Part shown: piece after piece, positions 11,570 through 59,866 of the stretch
How the letters are laid out: every line of letters begins with the position of its first letter
How positions within the stretch are numbered: position 1 is the first letter of the stretch
NCBI RefSeq assembly: GCF_003334385.1
Contig: NZ_QOWN01000029.1
Strand: one strand, 5' to 3'
DNA length: 59,866 bases
DNA from: Escherichia coli
GTDB taxonomy: Bacteria; Pseudomonadota; Gammaproteobacteria; Enterobacterales; Enterobacteriaceae
Program-made: the position numbers and the translations under genes
Notes under the pieces: model-generated
What the model was told of the DNA's origin: nothing
Seen by the model: only the letters and a program-made list of their open reading frames with translations
Databases searched by the model: none

Positions 11570-11600
11570 TAAAAGGTCCGATGCCCATCGGACCTTTTTA
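11570..11600. terminator. Bidirectional hairpin terminator between convergent rpoS and ygbN
   Basis: AAAAGGTCCGATG-CCCATCGGACCTTTTTA: perfect stem flanked by A-run and T-run. Confidence 0.7.
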
Positions 11601-18313: not shown

Positions 18314-18418
18314 GGTTTTACCCTGTAAAATAAGCTTTCCTATTATACAGGGTGTTTTTATTTTATTCGTCAGTTGTCGTTAATATTCCCGATAGCAAAA
18401 GACTATCGGGAATTGTTA

Positions 18419-20980
18419 TTACACCAGGCTCTTCAAGCGATAAATCCACTCCAGCGCCTGACGCGGGGTGAGTGAATCCGGATCAAGATTTTCCAGAGCT
18501 TCGACCGCAGGCGAAGTTTCTTCTGGTACTGACAGCAAAGACATTTGCGTACCATCCACTTGCGTAGCGGCGGCGTTCGGCGAAATGCTTTCCAGCTCAC
18601 GCAGCTTTTGCCGTGCGCGCTTAATAACCTCTTTTGGCACGCCTGCCAGAGCTGCAACCGCCAGGCCGTAGCTTTTGCTCGCCGCGCCATCCTGCACGCT
18701 GTGCATAAAGGCAATGGTGTCGCCGTGCTCCAGTGCATCGAGATGCACGTTAGCGACGCCTTCCATTTTCTCCGGTAACTGGGTCAGCTCGAAATAGTGG
18801 GTAGCAAATAACGTCAATGCCTTAATCTTATTCGCCAGATTTTCCGCGCACGCCCACGCCAGCGACAGACCATCGTAGGTGGACGTTCCACGCCCGATCT
18901 CATCCATTAACACCAGACTGTATTCGGTGGCGTTATGTAAAATATTGGCGGTTTCAGTCATCTCCACCATAAAGGTTGAGCGCCCGGACGCCAGGTCATC
19001 TGCCGCGCCTACGCGGGTAAAGATGCGATCGATAGGTCCAATCTCGACTTTTTGTGCCGGTACATAGCTGCCGATGTAGGCCATCAGCGCAATCAGTGCG
19101 GTCTGGCGCATATAGGTACTTTTACCGCCCATGTTCGGACCGGTGATGATCAACATGCGGCGCTGCGGCGACAGATTCAGCGGGTTGGCGATAAATGGCT
19201 CATTCAGTACTTGTTCAACTACCGGATGGCGACCTTCGGTAATGCGAATGCCCGGTTTATCAATGAAGGTCGGGCAGGTGTAGTTCAGGGTATAGGCCCG
19301 TTCCGCCAGGTTAACCAGCACGTCGAGTTCCGCCAGCGCGCTCGCGCTCTGTTGCAACGCTTCCAGATGCGGCAACAGCAGGTCGAACAGCTCTTCATAA
19401 AGCTGTTTTTCCAGTGCCAGTGCTTTGCCTTTTGAGGTGAGAACTTTATCTTCGTACTCTTTTAGCTCTGGAATGATGTAGCGCTCGGCGTTTTTCAGCG
19501 TCTGGCGACGCATGTAGTTGATGGGTGCCAGATGGCTTTGCCCACGGCTGATTTGAATGTAGTAGCCGTGCACCGCATTAAAGCCAACTTTCAGCGTGTC
19601 CAGGCCGGTACGTTCACGCTCGCGGACTTCCAGACGCTCCAGATAATCGGTCGCGCCGTCAGCCAGCGCGCGCCACTCATCCAGCTCTTCGTTATAGCCC
19701 GATGCGATAACACCACCGTCGCGTACCAGCACCGGCGGTGTGTCGATGATTGCTCGCTCCAGCAGATCGCGCAGCTCGGCAAACTCGCCCATCTTCTCAC
19801 GTAGCGCCTGTACCGGTGCACTATCGACAGTTTCTAACTGCGCACGCAGCTCCGGCAGTTGCTGGAAAGCGTGGCGCATACGGGCCAGATCGCGTGGGCG
19901 AGCAGTTCGTAAAGCCAGACGTGCCAGAATGCGTTCCAGGTCGCCGACCTGACGCAGTACCGGCTGTAGCCCGGCGGTGAAATCCTGCAATGCGCCAATA
20001 GTTTGCTGGCGCTCAAGCAACACGCGGGTATCGCGCACTGGCATATGCAGCCAGCGTTTCAGCATACGGCTGCCCATCGGCGTGACGGTGCAGTCGAGCA
20101 CAGAAGCCAGCGTATTTTCCGCACCACCCGCCAGGTTCTGGGTGATTTCCAGATTACGACGCGTCGCGGCATCCATAATGATGCTGTCCTGCTCACGTTC
20201 CATGGTGATGGAACGAATATGCGGCAGAGTCGTACGTTGGGTATCTTTCGCATACTGCAACAGACAACCGGCAGCACAAAGTCCGCGCGGCGCGTTCTCG
20301 ACGCCAAAACCGACCAGATCGCGGGTCCCAAATTGCAGATTCAACTGCTGGCGCGCGGTGTCGATTTCAAACTCCCACAGCGGGCGACGGCGCAGGCCGC
20401 GACGGCCTTCAATTAACGACATTTCAGCAAAATCTTCTGCATACAGCAGTTCCGCAGGATTAGTGCGTTGCAGTTCTGCCGCCATCGTTTCGCGGTCAGC
20501 CGGTTCGCTCAGGCGAAAACGCCCGGAACTGATATCCAGCGTCGCGTAGCCGAAACCTTTGCTGTCCTGCCAGATAGCCGCCAGCAGGTTGTCCTGACGC
20601 TCCTGCAACAGGGCTTCATCGCTGATGGTGCCTGGCGTAACGATACGCACAACTTTGCGCTCAACCGGACCTTTGCTGGTCGCCGGATCGCCAATTTGTT
20701 CGCAGATGGCAACGGACTCTCCCTGATTCACCAGTTTGGCGAGATAGTTTTCCACCGCATGGTAGGGAATCCCCGCCATCGGGATCGGCTCTCCCGCCGA
20801 AGCACCGCGTTTGGTCAGTGAAATATCCAGCAGTTGCGACGCGCGTTTTGCGTCGTCATAAAACAGTTCATAAAAATCACCCATCCGGTAAAACAGCAGG
20901 ATCTCGGGATGCTGGGCTTTCAGCCTGAGATACTGCTGCATCATGGGCGTATGGGCGTCGAAATTTTCTATTGCACTCAT
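18419..20980 (-). CDS. mutS: DNA mismatch repair protein MutS
   Basis: 853-aa ORF with Walker [10 protein letters not shown] and mismatch-binding N-terminal domain. Confidence 0.97.
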
Positions 20981-21226
20981 GGGGTTATGTCCGGTTCCCT
21001 GATATTAAATGGGGTGTGATGGTTTTTATTTTCGTTGTAATCACATAAGGCGCACATGATACCGGAGTTAATCATTTCAGGGGAAGAAGCGAACGGCGAG
21101 TTCTTGATGCTGGTTCCGGGAAAGATGCTGTTTTGCAGCTTTTGCGTGATGCTTATGAAGCAAGTACGCAAAATTGTATCGGTTGGCTAACCCTTCTTCT
21201 TTGGAGTCATAGTGCCCTTTAAGATT

Positions 21227-21249
21227 AAGATGTAATATAAATACATCTT
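21227..21249. promoter_or_regulatory. NsrR-type operator (inverted repeat) upstream of ygbA
   Basis: AAGATGTAATATAAATACATCTT, a 23-bp near-perfect palindrome 18 bp upstream of the ygbA start, matching the NsrR box pattern AAGATGyATTTnAAATrCATCTT. Confidence 0.7.
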
Positions 21250-21266
21250 AATGAGGTGGAGGCAGC

Positions 21267-21620
21267 ATGTCCGGCAAGCGTATCTCTCGTGAAAAACTGA
21301 CGATTAAAAAAATGATCGATCTTTATCAAGCGAAATGCCCGCAGGCGTCAGCGGAGCCGGAGCATTACGAGGCGTTGTTTGTTTACGCGCAAAAGCGGCT
21401 GGATAAATGTGTGTTCGGCGAAGAGAAACCAGCCTGTAAGCAGTGTCCGGTGCACTGTTACCAGCCTGCAAAGCGTGAAGAGATGAAACAGATTATGCGT
21501 TGGGCCGGGCCGAGAATGCTGTGGCGTCATCCGATCTTAACCGTGCGTCATCTCATCGATGACAAGCGTCCGGTGCCAGAACTGCCGGAAAAATATCGTC
21601 CGAAAAAACCTCATGAATAG
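21267..21620 (+). CDS. ygbA: NsrR-regulated small protein YgbA (nitrosative stress)
   Basis: 117-aa Cys-rich ORF, conserved position between mutS and fhlA. Confidence 0.8.
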   Translation: MSGKRISREKLTIKKMIDLYQAKCPQASAEPEHYEALFVYAQKRLDKCVFGEEKPACKQCPVHCYQPAKREEMKQIMRWAGPRMLWRHPILTVRHLIDDKRPVPELPEKYRPKKPHE

Positions 21621-21656
21621 TATGCCGGACAGGCAGATCTGTCCGGCAATTTGCAG

Positions 21657-23735
21657 TTAAATCAATGCCGATTTATCAATTCCCAGCCGCTTCATCCGTG
21701 ACAGCAGGGTCGTGCGTTTCAGCCCCAGACGTTGCGCAGCGCCTTTAGGCCCGGCAACCACGCCGTTGGTTTCTTTCAGCACGCGCACAATCAACTGATA
21801 TTCATCTTCGCCCTCCAGGGCGACAACCGTTGCGGCAGGCGGCGTTTCAGGTTCCGGTAAAACAATATCTGGCAATGACAGCTGCAGCACGTTACCGCGT
21901 GTTAGCAATACCGCGCGCTCAATGACGTTTTCCAGTTCGCGTACGTTACCCGGCCACTCCATGTTGCTCAAGGTGCGCAGCGTCTCGGCAGGAATGCTGT
22001 CGATATTGCGCCCCAGACGACGGGCAATTTTGAAGGTAAAGGCTTTCGCCAGCAGCGGAATATCTTCCGGACGCTCGCGTAGTGGCGGCAGGTGAATCGG
22101 GAATACGTTCAGGCGGTAATAGAGATCGCTACGGAACTCACGGTCGGCGACCATTTTTTTCAGATCGCGGTTAGTCGCGGCGATTAGACGCACGTCCGTC
22201 TGAATGATTTTGTTGCTGCCGAGACGTTCAAACTCCTGTTCCTGCAATACACGCAGCAACTTCGGCTGTAACTCCAGTGGCATATCGCCCACTTCGTCGA
22301 GGAACAGGGAGCTTTTATCCGCCAGTTCAAAACGACCGATACGCTGGGCGCTGGCACCGGTAAAAGCCCCACGCTCATGACCAAACAGATCGCTTTCCAG
22401 CAATCCGGCAGGCATCGCCGCGCAGTTCATTTTGACCATGCGGCGATTATTACGCCCACTGAGATTATGGATCGCACGGGCAATCAGCTCTTTACCCGTG
22501 CCAGTTTCACCGAGGATCAGCACGGTACTGTCACTTTGCGCCACCATTTCAACTTGTTTAAGCACGCTGTACATGGCTTCGCTGCGGCCAATAATCTCGC
22601 CAAATTCACTATCAACATTGTTGAGCTGCTCGGTCAGGGCGAGGTTTTCATCAACCAGCCGTTCTTTCAGACGATGGATTTCCTGATAGGCGAGGGCGTT
22701 ATCGACAGCGATTGCCACACGTTCGGCAATCTGGCGCAGTAAATTCAGATTGGTAGTGGTAAACACTTTCTCTTCGCATTGCGCCAGTTTCAGCACGCCC
22801 AGCATGGTGTCGCCAGACATCAGCGGTAACAGGCACAAGGTTTGAATCTGGTTGCCCCAGGTGTCGAACAACATGCGTTCATAGGGGGCTAAATCGTCCC
22901 GCTCGTGGAGATTGATCAGCAGCATCTCTTTACTTTTGAACACGCGTTCGGTGAGGGTTCCGGCTTCATCGACTTCGCTCTGTTCGTGGGCGGGATGCTG
23001 TTTATCAAGATAGTGAGTGGAGTAGATGTTGAGTTTGTTTTTACGGTGGCTGCGTAAGACGATACTGATATCGTCAATGTCGAAATAGTAATGGATTTCT
23101 TTGGCGACTTCGCTGACCAGTTCGTCCATATCCAGGCGGGAAAGCACCGCGTTGGTGATGGCGACCAGGATGCGGAAGTTATCGCGTTCCCGGCATAACA
23201 ACTCATAGTCGACATTGTTAACGACGCGGCTCTGGATTTGTTCGGTGACGACAGAAACGATCTGCGTAAATGTTTGCAGACGATTGAACTCTTTTTCGCT
23301 CCAGGGGCGATCGTCATAACGAATAAATTCACAGCCACCAAAAATATGCCCTTCCGCCGCCAGTGGCATCAGGCAATAGTGACCAAATTTTGGGTATAGC
23401 CCACCTGCGTCCAGCTGCGGCCAGGTTTCACAAAATTCTTCGTAACTGCAATGCAGCGTATCAGGGCGCGACAAAATGCTGCGTACCGGACCGTGTGCCA
23501 GAACAGTTTCGTCTTCATATTTAATGGGGGTGTCTTTTTCACGCGACGCGTAATAAGACGCACGTTGAGTCTGCGCTTGCCACAACACAATAGCCGCGTT
23601 GTCGGCGAGCGCAGAACGCTTTACCAGTTGCGAAAGAGCCTCACACAGCGAGGCCAGATCGGGCTGCTGCAATAGTGTCCGAGTGATGTCGAACAACCCT
23701 TGTTGTCCGAGATCACTCATCGGTGTATATGACAT
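21657..23735 (-). CDS. fhlA: Formate hydrogenlyase transcriptional activator (sigma54 enhancer-binding protein)
   Basis: 692-aa product from MSYTPMSDLGQQ; GAF domains, AAA+ sigma54-interaction domain ([14 protein letters not shown]), C-terminal HTH. Confidence 0.95.
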   Translation of the reverse strand: MSYTPMSDLGQQGLFDITRTLLQQPDLASLCEALSQLVKRSALADNAAIVLWQAQTQRASYYASREKDTPIKYEDETVLAHGPVRSILSRPDTLHCSYEEFCETWPQLDAGGLYPKFGHYCLMPLAAEGHIFGGCEFIRYDDRPWSEKEFNRLQTFTQIVSVVTEQIQSRVVNNVDYELLCRERDNFRILVAITNAVLSRLDMDELVSEVAKEIHYYFDIDDISIVLRSHRKNKLNIYSTHYLDKQHPAHEQSEVDEAGTLTERVFKSKEMLLINLHERDDLAPYERMLFDTWGNQIQTLCLLPLMSGDTMLGVLKLAQCEEKVFTTTNLNLLRQIAERVAIAVDNALAYQEIHRLKERLVDENLALTEQLNNVDSEFGEIIGRSEAMYSVLKQVEMVAQSDSTVLILGETGTGKELIARAIHNLSGRNNRRMVKMNCAAMPAGLLESDLFGHERGAFTGASAQRIGRFELADKSSLFLDEVGDMPLELQPKLLRVLQEQEFERLGSNKIIQTDVRLIAATNRDLKKMVADREFRSDLYYRLNVFPIHLPPLRERPEDIPLLAKAFTFKIARRLGRNIDSIPAETLRTLSNMEWPGNVRELENVIERAVLLTRGNVLQLSLPDIVLPEPETPPAATVVALEGEDEYQLIVRVLKETNGVVAGPKGAAQRLGLKRTTLLSRMKRLGIDKSALI

Positions 23736-28099: not shown

Positions 28100-28223
28100 G
28101 CTGAGGCTTTGCCCGTTTTGCAGGCGTTACGCCTGTTTGGGGATGGGCGTGTCGATGAGTGTCGAAAATGACATTTCATCGGCATGTTTTCGTCAAAAAT
28201 GACAATCACCTGAGGAATGCCTG

Positions 28224-43027: not shown

Positions 43028-44161
43028 CTACATCGGCAATGTTTTCAACAATCCAAATGCCTCTTTCATCCGATCCTCACTGACCACAAAGGCGCGAAGC
43101 TGGTCAGCATCGTCAACGCCGCGCGCCACCATTCCCTGGCGTTCGGTATTAATTTGCCAGCGTAAATCCTGACGCTGGGTTTCGCCTGCCAGATGCAGCG
43201 GTAATTCCGGCGTTTTGATTTTCACCAGCATCGCCGGGAGTTTCAGCGGCGTGTTATTGCCGAGAAGATTTTTTGCCAGCACCATCGCGCTAAGTTGAAT
43301 CGGCTGGAGGAACGGCAATACCTGACCGTTAATTTCCGCGCAATCGCCCAGCGCGTAAATATCGGTATTACTGGTTTGCAGATAACTATCGACGCAAACG
43401 CCGCGATTAATCGTCAGCCCGGCGCGTCGTGCCAGGGCGGTTTCCGGGCGCAGTCCGGTGGCGGCAATTACCGCATCCACTTCGATGCTACGCTGGCGGT
43501 CCAGCGTTGCCAGAATGCCAGAATCCGTTTTTTCCAGCCCCTGCAACTGAGATTTCAACAGCAGATGAACACCCATCTCCGTCAACCGATGCTGCAAGCG
43601 GCTGCTTACTTCCGGTGGCATTAACGACGCCAGAATACTGGCAGCGTTGTCGATTAGCGTGACCGCTTTGCCTGCACGACAAAAATCCATCGCCAGTTCG
43701 CTACCAATCAAACCACCGCCAACAATCAACACGCGTCGGGCATCCCGCAGTTGCGTTTCACAGGCGCGATACTCTTGCTGACTATTTAACGTCAGCATTA
43801 ACTCACGCCCAGGCACAGGCGGGACAAAGGCGCTGGCACCGGTTGCCAGCACTAACTTGTCGTATTGCCACTGATTATTCTGGCTTTTCACCACATGGGC
43901 TTCGGCATCGATATCCGTCACCCAGGTGTGCGGAAACAGGCGCAGATTAAACTGCTCGGCAAATTCACCCGCCGTCTGGCGGGTAAGGTCGTCGGCACGT
44001 TGCCCCTGACTGATAACATGGCTGAGGTCAGGTTTGTTGTACTCATCTATGCTGTCGGCGGCAATCAAGGTTAATGGAATAGTGGCGTCCTGTTTGCGAA
44101 TATTTTTCACCAGTTGTCGGGCGGCGAAGCCCGAACCAATGATCACAATGCCGTTGCTCAT
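43028..44161 (-). CDS. norW: NADH:flavorubredoxin oxidoreductase
   Basis: 377-aa ORF with FAD motif GSGFAA, overlaps norV stop. Confidence 0.95.
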
Positions 44162-45597
44162 TTTGCCTCCGATGCCAGTTCGTCAAAGACGTCTTTGCCG
44201 AGGGAGCATTCCGGGCACAGGAAGTTATCCGGGACTTCACTCCACGGCGTTCCTGGTGCAACGTCCTGCATTGGCTCGCCTTTTGCCGGATCGTAAATCC
44301 ACCGGCAGACGCTGCACTGCATCCGTGGGCCGAGGTCAGCCGTCGTGGCGGCAGAGGTTTCTTCTTTAACTACCGTATTCACCGTGCTCTGCGGCAGCGG
44401 CGCGAGCGCCCACTGACGGGCGATTTCGCGACCGTGTTCACGGCATAACTCCAGAGCGTCCTGGTCTGGTCGCCATTTGGCTTTCAGGCTGAGCGACATT
44501 TCGAAACCCGCATCCTGCAGGCGCGTGGAAAGACGATCCACCGCACCGCCGCTCCAGCCGTGAGAGCCGAAAGCACTGGCGCGTTTGTTACGGAAGCGTA
44601 AACCAGTCATCTCCTCCACCAGCCCGGCGATTTTCGGCATCATCACGTTATTCATCGTCGAAGTGCCGACCAGCACGCCTTTTGAGCGGAAGACATTGGT
44701 CAGGATTTCGTTTTTATCGCTTCGGGCGACGTTGAAAATTTTCACCGCCACGCGTGGGTCGGTTTCCGCAATCCCCTGGGCGATAGCGTCAGCCATCATG
44801 CGGGTGTTATTCGACATGGTGTCGTAGAAAATGGTGATTCTGTCTTCCTGATAATCAGCCGCCCATTTCAGGTACAGCTCGACAATTTGCGTCGGGTTAT
44901 CGCGCCAGACCACGCCGTGGGAGGTCGCTATCATATCGACTGGTAAGTTAAAGCCCAGGATCTCGGTAATTTTCGGCGTTACCAGGCGGCTGAACGGCGT
45001 CAGGATATTGGCGTAGTAACGCTGGCACTGCTCGAAAAGCTCCGTCTGATCCACTTCATCGTTGAACAGATGCTCGTCACAGTAGTGCTGACCGAAAGCA
45101 TCGTTACTGAACAGCACCGCGTCGCCTGTCAGGTAAGTCATCATGCTGTCCGGCCAGTGCAGCATTGGTGTTTCGACAAAAATGAGCTGTTTGCCGTTGC
45201 CGATATCCAGCGTGTCGCCAGTTTTCACCACATTAAAATTCCACTCCGGATGATGGTGATGACCATTTATCGAGTCGATAGCGTTGGCAGTACAGTAGAT
45301 CGGCGTATCGGGAATTTGTGCCATCAGTTCGGTCAGCGCCCCAGCGTGGTCCTCTTCTGCATGGTTAATCACGATGTAATCGATATCCGCCAGATCGATT
45401 TCATTACGCAGGTTCTGCACAAATTCGCGGCTGAATTTATGGTCGACGGTGTCGATCAGCACGTTTTTTTCTTCGCGGATGAGGTAGCTATTGTAGCTGC
45501 TGCCGCGCAGCGTTTTATATTCCGTGCCGTGAAAATCACGCACTTCCCAGTCACGTTGACCAACCCAATGAATGTTATTTTTCACCACAATAGACAT
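44158..45597 (-). CDS. norV: Anaerobic nitric oxide reductase flavorubredoxin
   Basis: 479-aa ORF: metallo-beta-lactamase-like + flavodoxin + C-terminal rubredoxin (CxxC...CPxC). Confidence 0.95.
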
Positions 45598-45644
45598 AGC
45601 AACCTCAATTTATTCAGCGTGTTCTAAAAAGATGTCTTGCTAAT

Positions 45645-45660
45645 TGCAGATTGCGTGCCA
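45645..45660 (-). promoter_or_regulatory. sigma54 (-24/-12) promoter of norVW
   Basis: Minus-strand TGGCACGCAATCTGCA (GG-N10-GC), about 50 nt upstream of norV start. Confidence 0.7.
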
Positions 45661-45714
45661 GTTTTTTATCTGATTGTTTTTACTCTATAAATAAAATTAT
45701 GCCCATTAATGAGT

Positions 45715-45771
45715 AGTCAAAATGACTATCAATCAAATGGTCGATATGACAATATCTATAGTCAAATTGAC
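45715..45771. promoter_or_regulatory. Three NorR enhancer sites (GT-N7-AC inverted repeats)
   Basis: GTCAAAATGAC (45715-45725), GTCGATATGAC (45740-45750), GTCAAATTGAC (45761-45771), spaced about 21-25 bp apart between divergent norV and norR. Confidence 0.75.
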
Positions 45772-45783
45772 AGTGAGGCAAAG

Positions 45784-47298
45784 ATGAGTTTTTCCGTTGA
45801 TGTGCTGGCGAATATCGCCATCGAATTGCAGCGTGGGATTGGTCACCAGGATCGTTTTCAGCGCCTGATCACCACGCTACGTCAGGTGCTGGAGTGCGAT
45901 GCGTCTGCGTTGCTACGTTACGATTCGCGGCAGTTTATTCCGCTTGCCATCGACGGTCTGGCAAAGGATGTACTCGGTAGACGCTTTGCGCTGGAAGGGC
46001 ATCCACGGCTGGAAGCGATTGCCCGCGCCGGGGATGTGGTGCGCTTTCCCGCAGACAGCGAATTGCCCGATCCCTATGACGGTTTGATTCCTGGGCAGGA
46101 GAGTCTGAAGGTTCACGCCTGCGTTGGTCTGCCATTGTTTGCCGGGCAAAACCTGATCGGCGCACTGACGCTCGACGGGATGCAGCCCGATCAGTTCGAT
46201 GTTTTCAGCGACGAAGAGCTACGGCTGATTGCTGCGCTGGCGGCGGGAGCGTTAAGCAATGCGTTGCTGATTGAACAACTGGAAAGCCAGAATATGCTGC
46301 CAGGCGATGCCACGCCGTTTGAAGCGGTGAAACAGACGCAGATGATTGGCTTGTCCCCTGGCATGACGCAACTGAAAAAAGAGATTGAGATTGTGGCGGC
46401 GTCCGATCTCAACGTCCTGATCAGCGGTGAGACTGGAACCGGTAAGGAGCTGGTGGCGAAAGCGATTCATGAAGCCTCGCCACGGGCGGTGAATCCGCTG
46501 GTCTATCTCAACTGTGCTGCACTGCCGGAAAGTGTGGCGGAAAGTGAGTTGTTCGGGCATGTGAAAGGAGCGTTTACTGGCGCTATCAGTAATCGCAGCG
46601 GGAAGTTTGAAATGGCGGATAACGGCACGCTGTTTCTGGATGAGATCGGCGAGTTGTCGTTGGCATTGCAGGCCAAGCTGCTGAGGGTGTTGCAGTATGG
46701 CGATATTCAGCGCGTTGGCGATGACCGTTGTTTGCGGGTCGATGTGCGCGTGCTGGCGGCGACTAACCGCGATTTACGCGAAGAGGTGCTGGCAGGGCGA
46801 TTCCGCGCCGATTTGTTTCATCGCCTGAGCGTGTTTCCACTTTCGGTGCCGCCGCTGCGTGAGCGGGGCGATGATGTCATTCTGCTGGCGGGGTATTTCT
46901 GCGAGCAGTGTCGTTTGCGGCAGGGGCTCTCCCGCGTGGTATTAAGTGCCGGAGCGCGAAATTTACTGCAACACTACAGTTTTCCGGGAAACGTGCGCGA
47001 ACTGGAACATGCTATTCATCGGGCGGTAGTTCTGGCGAGAGCCACCCGCAGCGGCGATGAAGTGATTCTTGAGGCGCAACATTTTGCTTTTCCTGAGGTG
47101 ACGTTGCCGACGCCAGAAGTGGCGGCGGTGCCCGTTGTTAAGCAAAACCTGCGTGAAGCGACAGAAGCGTTCCAGCGTGAAACTATTCGTCAGGCACTGG
47201 CACAAAATCATCACAACTGGGCTGCCTGCGCGCGGATGCTGGAAACCGACGTCGCCAACCTGCATCGGCTGGCGAAACGTCTGGGATTGAAGGATTAA
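45784..47298 (+). CDS. norR: Anaerobic nitric oxide reductase transcription regulator (sigma54 enhancer-binding protein)
   Basis: 504-aa product from [18 protein letters not shown]; GAF domain, AAA+ ([14 protein letters not shown]), HTH. The longer six-frame ORF from 45709 would run through the NorR binding sites. Confidence 0.93.
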
Positions 47299-59427: not shown

Positions 59428-59520
59428 GGTGAGGTGGCCGAGAGGCTGAAGGCGCTCCCCTGCTAAGGGAGTATGCGGTCAAAAGCTGCATCCGGGGTTC
59501 GAATCCCCGCCTCACCGCCA
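59428..59520 (+). tRNA. serV: tRNA-Ser (anticodon GCU), 93 nt with long variable arm
   Basis: GGTGAGGTGGCCGAGAGG...CCCCTGCTAAGGGAG...GGTTCGAATCCCCGCCTCACCGCCA; cloverleaf with anticodon GCT and encoded CCA. Confidence 0.95.
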
Positions 59521-59523
59521 TTT

Positions 59524-59600
59524 GCATCCGTAGCTCAGCTGGATAGAGTACTCGGCTACGAACCGAGCGGTCGGAGGTTCGAATCCTCCCGGATGCACCA
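59524..59600 (+). tRNA. argV: tRNA-Arg (anticodon ACG), 77 nt
   Basis: GCATCCGTAGCTCAGCTGGATAGAGTACTCGGCTACGAACCGAGCGGTCGGAGGTTCGAATCCTCCCGGATGCACCA; anticodon ACG, encoded CCA; only 3 nt after serV. Confidence 0.95.
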
Positions 59601-59798
59601 TATTCTACGTACTTTCAGCGATGAAGGTATGGAAGAGGTGGCGGTAATAACCGCAGGCACCAGGGAGGATAACGTTGCTTTAGCAACGGCCCGAAGGGCG
59701 AGCCGCAAGGCGAGTAATCCTCCCTGATGCACCATCTCTTACTTGATACGGCTTTAGTAGCGGTATCAAAAAATCTGCAGTAAAGTAAGTTTCCCGAT

Positions 59799-59866
59799 GC
59801 ATCCGTAGCTCAGCTGGATAGAGTACTCGGCTACGAACCGAGCGGTCGGAGGTTCGAATCCTCCCG
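59799..59866 (+). tRNA. tRNA-Arg (anticodon ACG), second copy, truncated by the window edge
   Basis: Identical to argV over the 68 nt present; the window ends before the last 9 nt. Confidence 0.9.

Follow-up and report, generated by a model that had tools for sequence, protein, structure and literature searches.

The closest described systems for the sequence considered here are the operators of NsrR (YjeB), which a communication from S. Spiro carried in PMC1274295 presents as a NO-sensitive repressor of hmp, ytfE and ygbA in E. coli, acting on these genes via the same inverted repeat. Comparative genomics in that paper (Rodionov 2005, PMC1274295) gave the consensus gATGyAT-(N5)-ATrCATc. Regulation of E. 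coli ygbA by NsrR is attributed to Bodenmiller & Spiro 2006 where that work is cited in PMC5320621 and PMC2884951, and the ygbA promoter was NsrR-bound in the K-12 ChIP-chip experiments of Partridge 2009, as these are reported in PMC5320621. As the later papers describe it, then, the ygbA operator is already known and is a published NsrR site (Bodenmiller & Spiro 2006; Partridge 2009). Its gene is among those most upregulated by nitrate-derived NO (PMC5320621), and in Salmonella an nsrR mutation raises ygbA mRNA 31.8-fold (PMC2884951).

The protein partner in these systems is also well described. Holo-NsrR is a homodimer with one [4Fe-4S] cluster per subunit, and reaction of the cluster protein with NO abolishes DNA binding (PMC11500311, PMC5411485, PMC4432287); the operator that the holo-protein binds is 23 bp long (PMC9338935, PMC11500311, PMC5411485). 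In the crystal structure of the S. coelicolor NsrR-DNA complex the central 7 bp receive no base contacts, and mutating them leaves the affinity unchanged (PMC9338935). The structure of the E. coli NsrR protein is described as unsolved in PMC10783083. In E. coli CFT073 the ygbA allele AAGGTGCATTTATATTACAACTT is one of 27 predicted 11-1-11 sites (Mehta 2015, PMC5320621, Table 4), and NsrR ChIP-seq in that strain gave no peak at ygbA, a result which its authors judge to be a false negative (PMC5320621).

We analysed a window of 59,866 bp (the whole stretch of E. coli DNA presented here), which is collinear with E. coli K-12 MG1655 over its full length, with gene coordinates that match throughout, and which is 100% identical to it across 20900-21700. 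The gene order is iap-cys-rpoS-ygbI-N-mutS-ygbA-fhlA-hyp-hyc-asc-nor-srl-recA-alaS-csrA, and mutS and ygbA diverge from a spacer of 286 bp (20981-21266; Table 1). The ygbA ORF scores 274 bits, above the cut-off of 234, with the NCBIfam family NF007713, ‘nitrous oxide-stimulated promoter family protein’. Within the spacer, at 21227-21249, lies the 23-mer AAGATGTAATATAAATACATCTT (minus-strand reading AAGATGTATTTATATTACATCTT), and we consider it about 95% probable that this is the NsrR operator at the E. coli K-12 ygbA promoter. The original prediction had set it 18 bp upstream of the ygbA ATG, and this agrees with the sequence: 17 nt intervene between the operator and the ATG at 21267, with the last operator base at -18.

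Table 1. Coordinates of the ygbA operator, of the promoter elements predicted around it and of the flanking genes (positions in the 59,866-bp window)
Feature	Position	Strand	Basis or remark
NsrR operator, 11-1-11 register (AAGATGTAATA-T-AAATACATCTT)	21227..21249	.	sequence confirmed; matrix, consensus, conservation
Perfect inverted repeat, full extent, 11-nt arms ATTAAGATGTA / TACATCTTAAT	21224..21252	.	7-nt centre
Left half-site AAGATGTAATA, weaker, predicted to be promoter-embedded	21227..21237	+	7.3 bits in K-12
Right half-site, AAGATGTATTT on the minus strand, stronger, consensus-like	21239..21249	-	15.0 bits in K-12
Predicted -10 hexamer TAATAT, site positions 7-12	21233..21238	+	predicted from TAnnAT conservation
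Putative weak -35 hexamer TAGTGC	21210..21215	+	weak prediction; 17 bp upstream of -10
Predicted transcription start, +/- 2 nt	21245	+	predicted from -10 position, 7 nt after the hexamer
Shine-Dalgarno GGAGG of ygbA	21258..21262	+	read from sequence; invariant in Escherichia alleles
ygbA CDS, regulated gene, 117 aa	21267..21620	+	ORF; NCBIfam NF007713; RefSeq name ygbA
mutS, 853-aa ORF	18419..20980	-	ATG at 20980

The identification of this site as an NsrR-type operator, made in the original prediction together with the suggestion of a scan with an NsrR weight matrix, is borne out by its place at the top of an independently built matrix, by its match to the consensus, by its conservation in 79 of 80 species and by the reported NsrR regulation of the gene. 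We built the matrix from 15 ChIP-seq-positive CFT073 sites (Mehta 2015, PMC5320621, Table 4), leaving out those of ygbA and hycB. The operator scores 23.6 bits and ranks first over both strands of the 59,866 bp, the next best match standing at 13.7 bits; of 200 random (Markov-1) windows none reaches 23.6 bits, and their maximum is 20.1. Known sites score 23.0 (hmp), 26.8 (hcp) and 32.5 bits (ytfE) with the same matrix, and the value for ygbA thus lies within the range of ChIP-positive sites. Against the Rodionov consensus, 13 of 14 positions are matched, with the correct N5 spacing (GATGTAA-TATAA-ATACATC).

For comparison across species we scanned one genome per species, giving 80 YgbA-encoding loci of about 6.3 kb each from genera that include Escherichia, Citrobacter, Salmonella, Enterobacter, Klebsiella, Raoultella, Kluyvera, Lelliottia and Leclercia and extend out to Rahnella and Hafnia. 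In 79 of these 80 loci the NsrR matrix finds its best match of the whole locus 12-22 bp before the ygbA start (41 bp in Hafnia), and the median operator score across the species loci is 19.6 bits. When the sequences are anchored on the site, the information content is about 2 bits at site positions 1, 2, 6, 7, 8, 11, 12, 16, 18, 19, 22 and 23, whereas in the upstream flank, from -14 to -3, it is only about 0.0-0.3 bits. The flanks are thus randomised, which indicates that these species have diverged enough for such a comparison, and that the constraint does not extend beyond the 23 bp.

Conservation is also evident within E. coli, where the 81-bp promoter region (21195-21275) is found in 5409 of 5426 complete genomes. 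In E. coli alleles and in other Escherichia variation of the operator is limited to positions 4, 17 and 20, where the matrix tolerates it, and this holds even in Escherichia alleles that differ by 15% over the 81 bp. By identity over the 81-bp region the E. coli records fall into classes of at least 99% (1055), 95-99% (1796), 90-95% (83) and 80-90% (2476); such deep allele classes of the ygbA promoter fit the known mosaic character of the mutS-rpoS region. Two of the species loci are unusual. The single degenerate ygbA operator of the 80, AAGAGGTAACATTCAAGCCTCTT at 3.2 bits, is that of a locus (L059) in the Enterobacteriaceae metagenome-assembled genome UBA5654 (DIJC01000023.1), and even here the outer AAG...CTT and the TAnnAT core can be made out. 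A record titled ‘Chryseobacterium sp. 18061’ (L078, CACSKA010000005.1) has a ygbA of Enterobacter type (82% amino-acid identity), and 18 bp in front of it lies an NsrR operator such as is usual in enterobacteria; this assembly is probably mislabelled or contaminated.

The original prediction also described the 23 bp as a near-perfect palindrome. The position given for it, 21227-21249, is exact, but in the 11-1-11 register only 9 of the 11 arm pairs are complementary, and 23-mers paired to this degree are not rarer than chance, there being 13 in the window and 10.0 +/- 2.8 in Markov-1 random windows. On this count alone the site could be taken for a chance AT-rich palindrome without function. 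Against this stand the matrix score above all 200 random windows and the full extent of the repeat, whose perfect 11-nt arms (21224-21234 and 21242-21252) are separated by a gap of 7 nt: perfect arms of at least 11 nt occur at three places in the window where 0.23 are expected, an excess of about 13-fold. Position and sequence are moreover kept in 79 of the 80 species while the flanks are randomised, and this conservation refutes a chance origin, for which the probability is in our view negligible. A functional palindrome might instead act as a nucleic-acid hairpin, either as a 5′-UTR structure that hides or exposes the ribosome-binding site or as a terminator of transcription that arrives from the upstream spacer or small ORF. 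Folding energies are in keeping with such a role, since the 29-nt repeat, if transcribed, folds at -9.2 kcal/mol and with its flanks can reach -15.4 kcal/mol by pairing into the Shine-Dalgarno region, and PGAP calls a 44-aa ORF upstream of the operator. However, the arms do not covary: among 73 distinct sequences each pair is complementary just as often as it would be if its columns varied independently, and 61 of the 73 have a T.G mismatch at pair 7-17, so that the near-perfect palindrome is a peculiarity of the K-12 lineage. The stem consists almost wholly of A-T pairs, and what comes after it is AATGAGG rather than a T-run; the operator repeat went uncalled in a terminator scan, and a start at the predicted position inside the right arm would leave the ygbA mRNA with only part of one arm, while the 44-aa ORF belongs to no family and is of unstable length between strains. 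We rejected the hairpin because no compensatory change is seen at any arm pair, and regard it as highly improbable. The lack of covariation points to two protein half-sites rather than to a nucleic-acid structure; the conserved unit is not the palindrome but two independently evolving half-sites.

If the site is a protein operator, it might be one for NarL/NarP, NorR, Fur, FNR or IscR rather than for NsrR, and several partial resemblances speak for this: TACATCT (21242-21248) shares 6 of 7 positions with the NarL heptamer TACYYMT, the best NarL/P match of 7-2-7 form (11 of 14) also begins at 21242, the GATGT...ACATC of the operator resembles the Vibrio NorR2 motif GATGT-N7-ACATC, and the operator is AT-rich in the manner of Fur boxes. 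Motif scans of the spacer for these regulators nevertheless gave no convincing match at the operator. The NarL-like heptamers are parts of the NsrR half-sites and face inward (GTA...TAC), unlike those of a 7-2-7 site. GATGT and ACATC stand 9 apart, as in NsrR sites, and not 7 as in the NorR2 motif, and the N7 form matches at only 7 of 10 positions; an operator for NorR or NorR2 (GT-N7-AC upstream of a sigma-54 promoter) is not what the sequence contains, the spacing being N9. With scan patterns for IscR, Fur and NarL that were written by hand and are approximate, the best match in the spacer is 12 of 19 for Fur, at 21015, and 16 of 24 for the IscR type-2 motif, at 21003, both elsewhere than the operator, and the best FNR match (8 of 10) lies far from it at 21146. 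The NsrR matrix alone accounts for the conserved columns, and published genetics assign the regulation of ygbA to NsrR (PMC5320621, PMC2884951); we thus hold it highly improbable that another of these regulators is the one served by the site. Slightly less improbable, though still very unlikely, is that NsrR acts here on both genes, with the operator a shared control element that also regulates mutS. The original prediction had remarked that the site lies in a 286-bp divergent region common to mutS, and this is factually right, the operator being in the single spacer of the divergent pair; it carries no functional weight, however, as the operator lies 246 bp from the mutS ATG and abuts ygbA, and PMC5320621 does not list mutS among the NsrR targets. 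Across species, only 22 of the 80 loci gave a divergent mutS start within 3 kb (tblastn with the first 300 MutS residues and a 3-kb flank, a search that misses any mutS further away), whereas the operator keeps its fixed distance to ygbA in 79 of the 80; in the 58 loci that gave no such start it remains beside ygbA. The operator belongs to ygbA and travels with ygbA, not with mutS, and a role in mutS control is unlikely.

Returning to the reading of the site as an NsrR operator, we considered its relation to the ygbA promoter, which the original prediction had it overlap. A scan with a generic sigma-70 consensus over 20900-21700 found no promoter at its thresholds; the overlap is predicted from the near-invariant TAnnAT within the operator and from a conserved G placed 17 bp upstream of it. 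At site positions 7-12, 78 of 80 species have TAnnAT (TATTAT in 51, TAAAAT in 8, TAATAT in 7 and TAGAAT in 7), a pattern that was seen there in 0 of 30 orientations when other NsrR sites were examined. Of the ygbA operators, 98% have A at position 11 and 100% have T at position 12; in the NsrR training sites, by contrast, position 11 is T in 87% and position 12 shows no preference. As A11 and T12 are the bases that a sigma-70 -10 hexamer requires, a -10 element is probably embedded in the left half-site. Outside the operator the sole conserved patch is a G (91%) in the T/C-x-G at -17 to -15, where a -35 hexamer would begin at a fixed spacing of 17 bp, the optimum for such a promoter. At the -35 position many sequences of Enterobacter/Klebsiella type have CTGAAA where E. 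coli has TAGTGC; as TAGTGC has only 2 of its 6 bases in common with TTGACA, the promoter assignment derives from conservation and not from consensus strength.

The two half-sites are unequal across species (73 distinct sequences), with a mean of 7.0 bits for the left, which departs from the NsrR consensus at site position 11, and of 11.4 bits for the right. An embedded -10 hexamer could account for the weaker left half. The uncontacted central 7 bp of the S. coelicolor complex suggest how both signals might be accommodated, because a stretch whose bases are not read leaves room for the 3′ portion of a -10 hexamer; the gap of exactly 7 bp between the perfect arms in K-12 may have the same explanation. 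Alternatively, the invariance of A11 and T12 could be a DNA-shape requirement of NsrR at the ygbA site.

The model that we favour is one in which the left half-site would double as the -10 hexamer and repression would be by promoter occlusion. NsrR is a homodimer of the Rrf2 family whose subunits hold one iron-sulfur cluster each, and it would read one 11-bp half-site with each subunit (AAGATGTAATA and, on the other strand, AAGATGTATTT), and the central 7 bp of the operator would not be read base-specifically. With respect to the predicted start the operator would span about -19 to +5, so that bound holo-NsrR might cover this stretch, including the -10 TAATAT, and keep RNA polymerase off the promoter; nitrosylation of the cluster by NO would then cause NsrR to leave the DNA and allow ygbA to be transcribed. 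In this model the binding of NsrR in vivo in K-12, the repression, the induction by NO and the cluster chemistry are as reported in the papers cited, and those reports (PMC1274295, PMC5320621, PMC2884951) agree with the repression relieved by NO that had been predicted; the exact positions of the -10, the -35 and the start, and hence the geometry of occlusion, are our predictions from the DNA. What the analysis itself establishes is the sequence, the significance of its match to the NsrR matrix, and the retention of site and position before ygbA throughout the Enterobacteriaceae.

Several other features of the window touch on NsrR, on NO or on the surroundings of the operator. The second-best match to the NsrR matrix, AAATGACATTTCATCGGCATGTT at 28166-28188, lies between hycA (end 28099) and hycB (start 28224); its 13.7 bits are, by score alone, within chance. 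The sequence is identical to the CFT073 ‘hycB’ site, which lies under the second-strongest NsrR ChIP-seq peak (Mehta 2015, PMC5320621), and hycB is strongly down-regulated under nitrate (Mehta 2015, PMC5320621). The gene for the repressor, nsrR, is absent from the 59,866-bp window; in the E. coli K-12 genome it is present as nsrR (yjeB) (PMC1274295, PMC5320621). At 43028-47298, about 22 kb from the ygbA operator, are norW-norV and the divergent norR, with an NsrR-matrix match in the norV-norR spacer (45641-45663) that at 11.4 bits is within chance. These genes form the other dedicated NO-responsive system of E. coli.

Nearer to the operator, the 44-aa ‘hypothetical protein’ called by PGAP between mutS and ygbA (21056-21190, plus strand) has no NCBIfam match, is 60 aa long in ATCC 43886 and goes uncalled in GN4738, and a terminator-like hairpin (21127-21139) lies within it; it is probably a spurious gene call. 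The two other perfect repeats with arms of at least 11 nt, at 18385-18413 just 3′ of the mutS stop and at 11571-11598 between the convergent 3′ ends of rpoS and ygbN, are likely to be transcription terminators. An Rfam scan of the whole window returned three tRNAs only, at 59428-59866 downstream of csrA (Ser, Arg and an Arg cut by the window end), and no RNA family near the ygbA operator; the end of a CRISPR array adjoins iap at 1-372, as annotated in the matching K-12 record. The YgbA protein itself has five cysteines (C24, C48, C57, C60 and C64), including a CxxCxxxC cluster, and attempts to delete ygbA in Salmonella are reported to have been unsuccessful (PMC2884951).

Considering what these results mean, ygbA has been a textbook member of the NsrR regulon in E. 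coli and Salmonella since 2005-2009, and the operator defines that membership; the importance of the present work beyond annotation is little. It does illustrate that a real operator is recognisable from sequence alone, without tools, and its modest additions are the asymmetry of the half-sites, the likely embedded -10 element, the absence of covariation between the arms, and the tying of the operator to ygbA rather than to the divergent pair. A more speculative proposal, which we think unlikely although less so than any of the rival explanations above, is that in such a dual-coded operator the split between the K-12 type AAGATGTAATATAAATACATCTT and the B2/CFT073 type AAGTTGTAATATAAATGCACCTT might change NsrR occupancy, in which case the missing CFT073 ChIP-seq peak would mean that the strains truly differ in the NO threshold of ygbA. 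If that were true, the missing peak would not be a false negative.

The architecture of the ygbA site can be set beside those of known systems. The NsrR matrix of Partridge 2009 reportedly describes an 11-1-11 inverted repeat, and so does that of Mehta 2015. The type-1 and type-2 operators of IscR, a paralogous Rrf2 regulator in E. coli, are similar in being pseudo-palindromic, in binding a winged-helix dimer of this family and in overlapping promoters, as is predicted for ygbA, but their motif is different, and IscR senses Fe-S status and not NO. The S. coelicolor NsrR-hmpA1 operator (PMC9338935) is likewise a 23-bp pseudo-palindrome bound by a [4Fe-4S] Rrf2 dimer, whose uncontacted central 7 bp match the 8+7+8 anatomy of the ygbA site, although the hmpA1 half-site sequence differs (AACACGAATAT...) and the S. 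coelicolor regulon comprises only three promoters. The CFT073 ygbA allele is the same motif at the same position of the same gene, and differs from the K-12 site at positions 4, 17 and 20 (plus strand), K-12 having the more perfect palindrome of the two.

The NsrR operators of ytfE, hmpA and hcp in E. coli share with the ygbA site the 23-bp 11-1-11 architecture and the bases AA at 1-2, G6, A8, T16, C18 and TT at 22-23; they lie at the core promoters of NO-induced genes, the location that is also predicted for the ygbA site. The ygbA site differs from them in having no ChIP-seq peak in CFT073, in carrying A-T at positions 11-12 instead of T-n, and in always having T at position 7. Its left half is therefore weaker than its right (about 7 against 11-15 bits) and can be read as a -10 hexamer.
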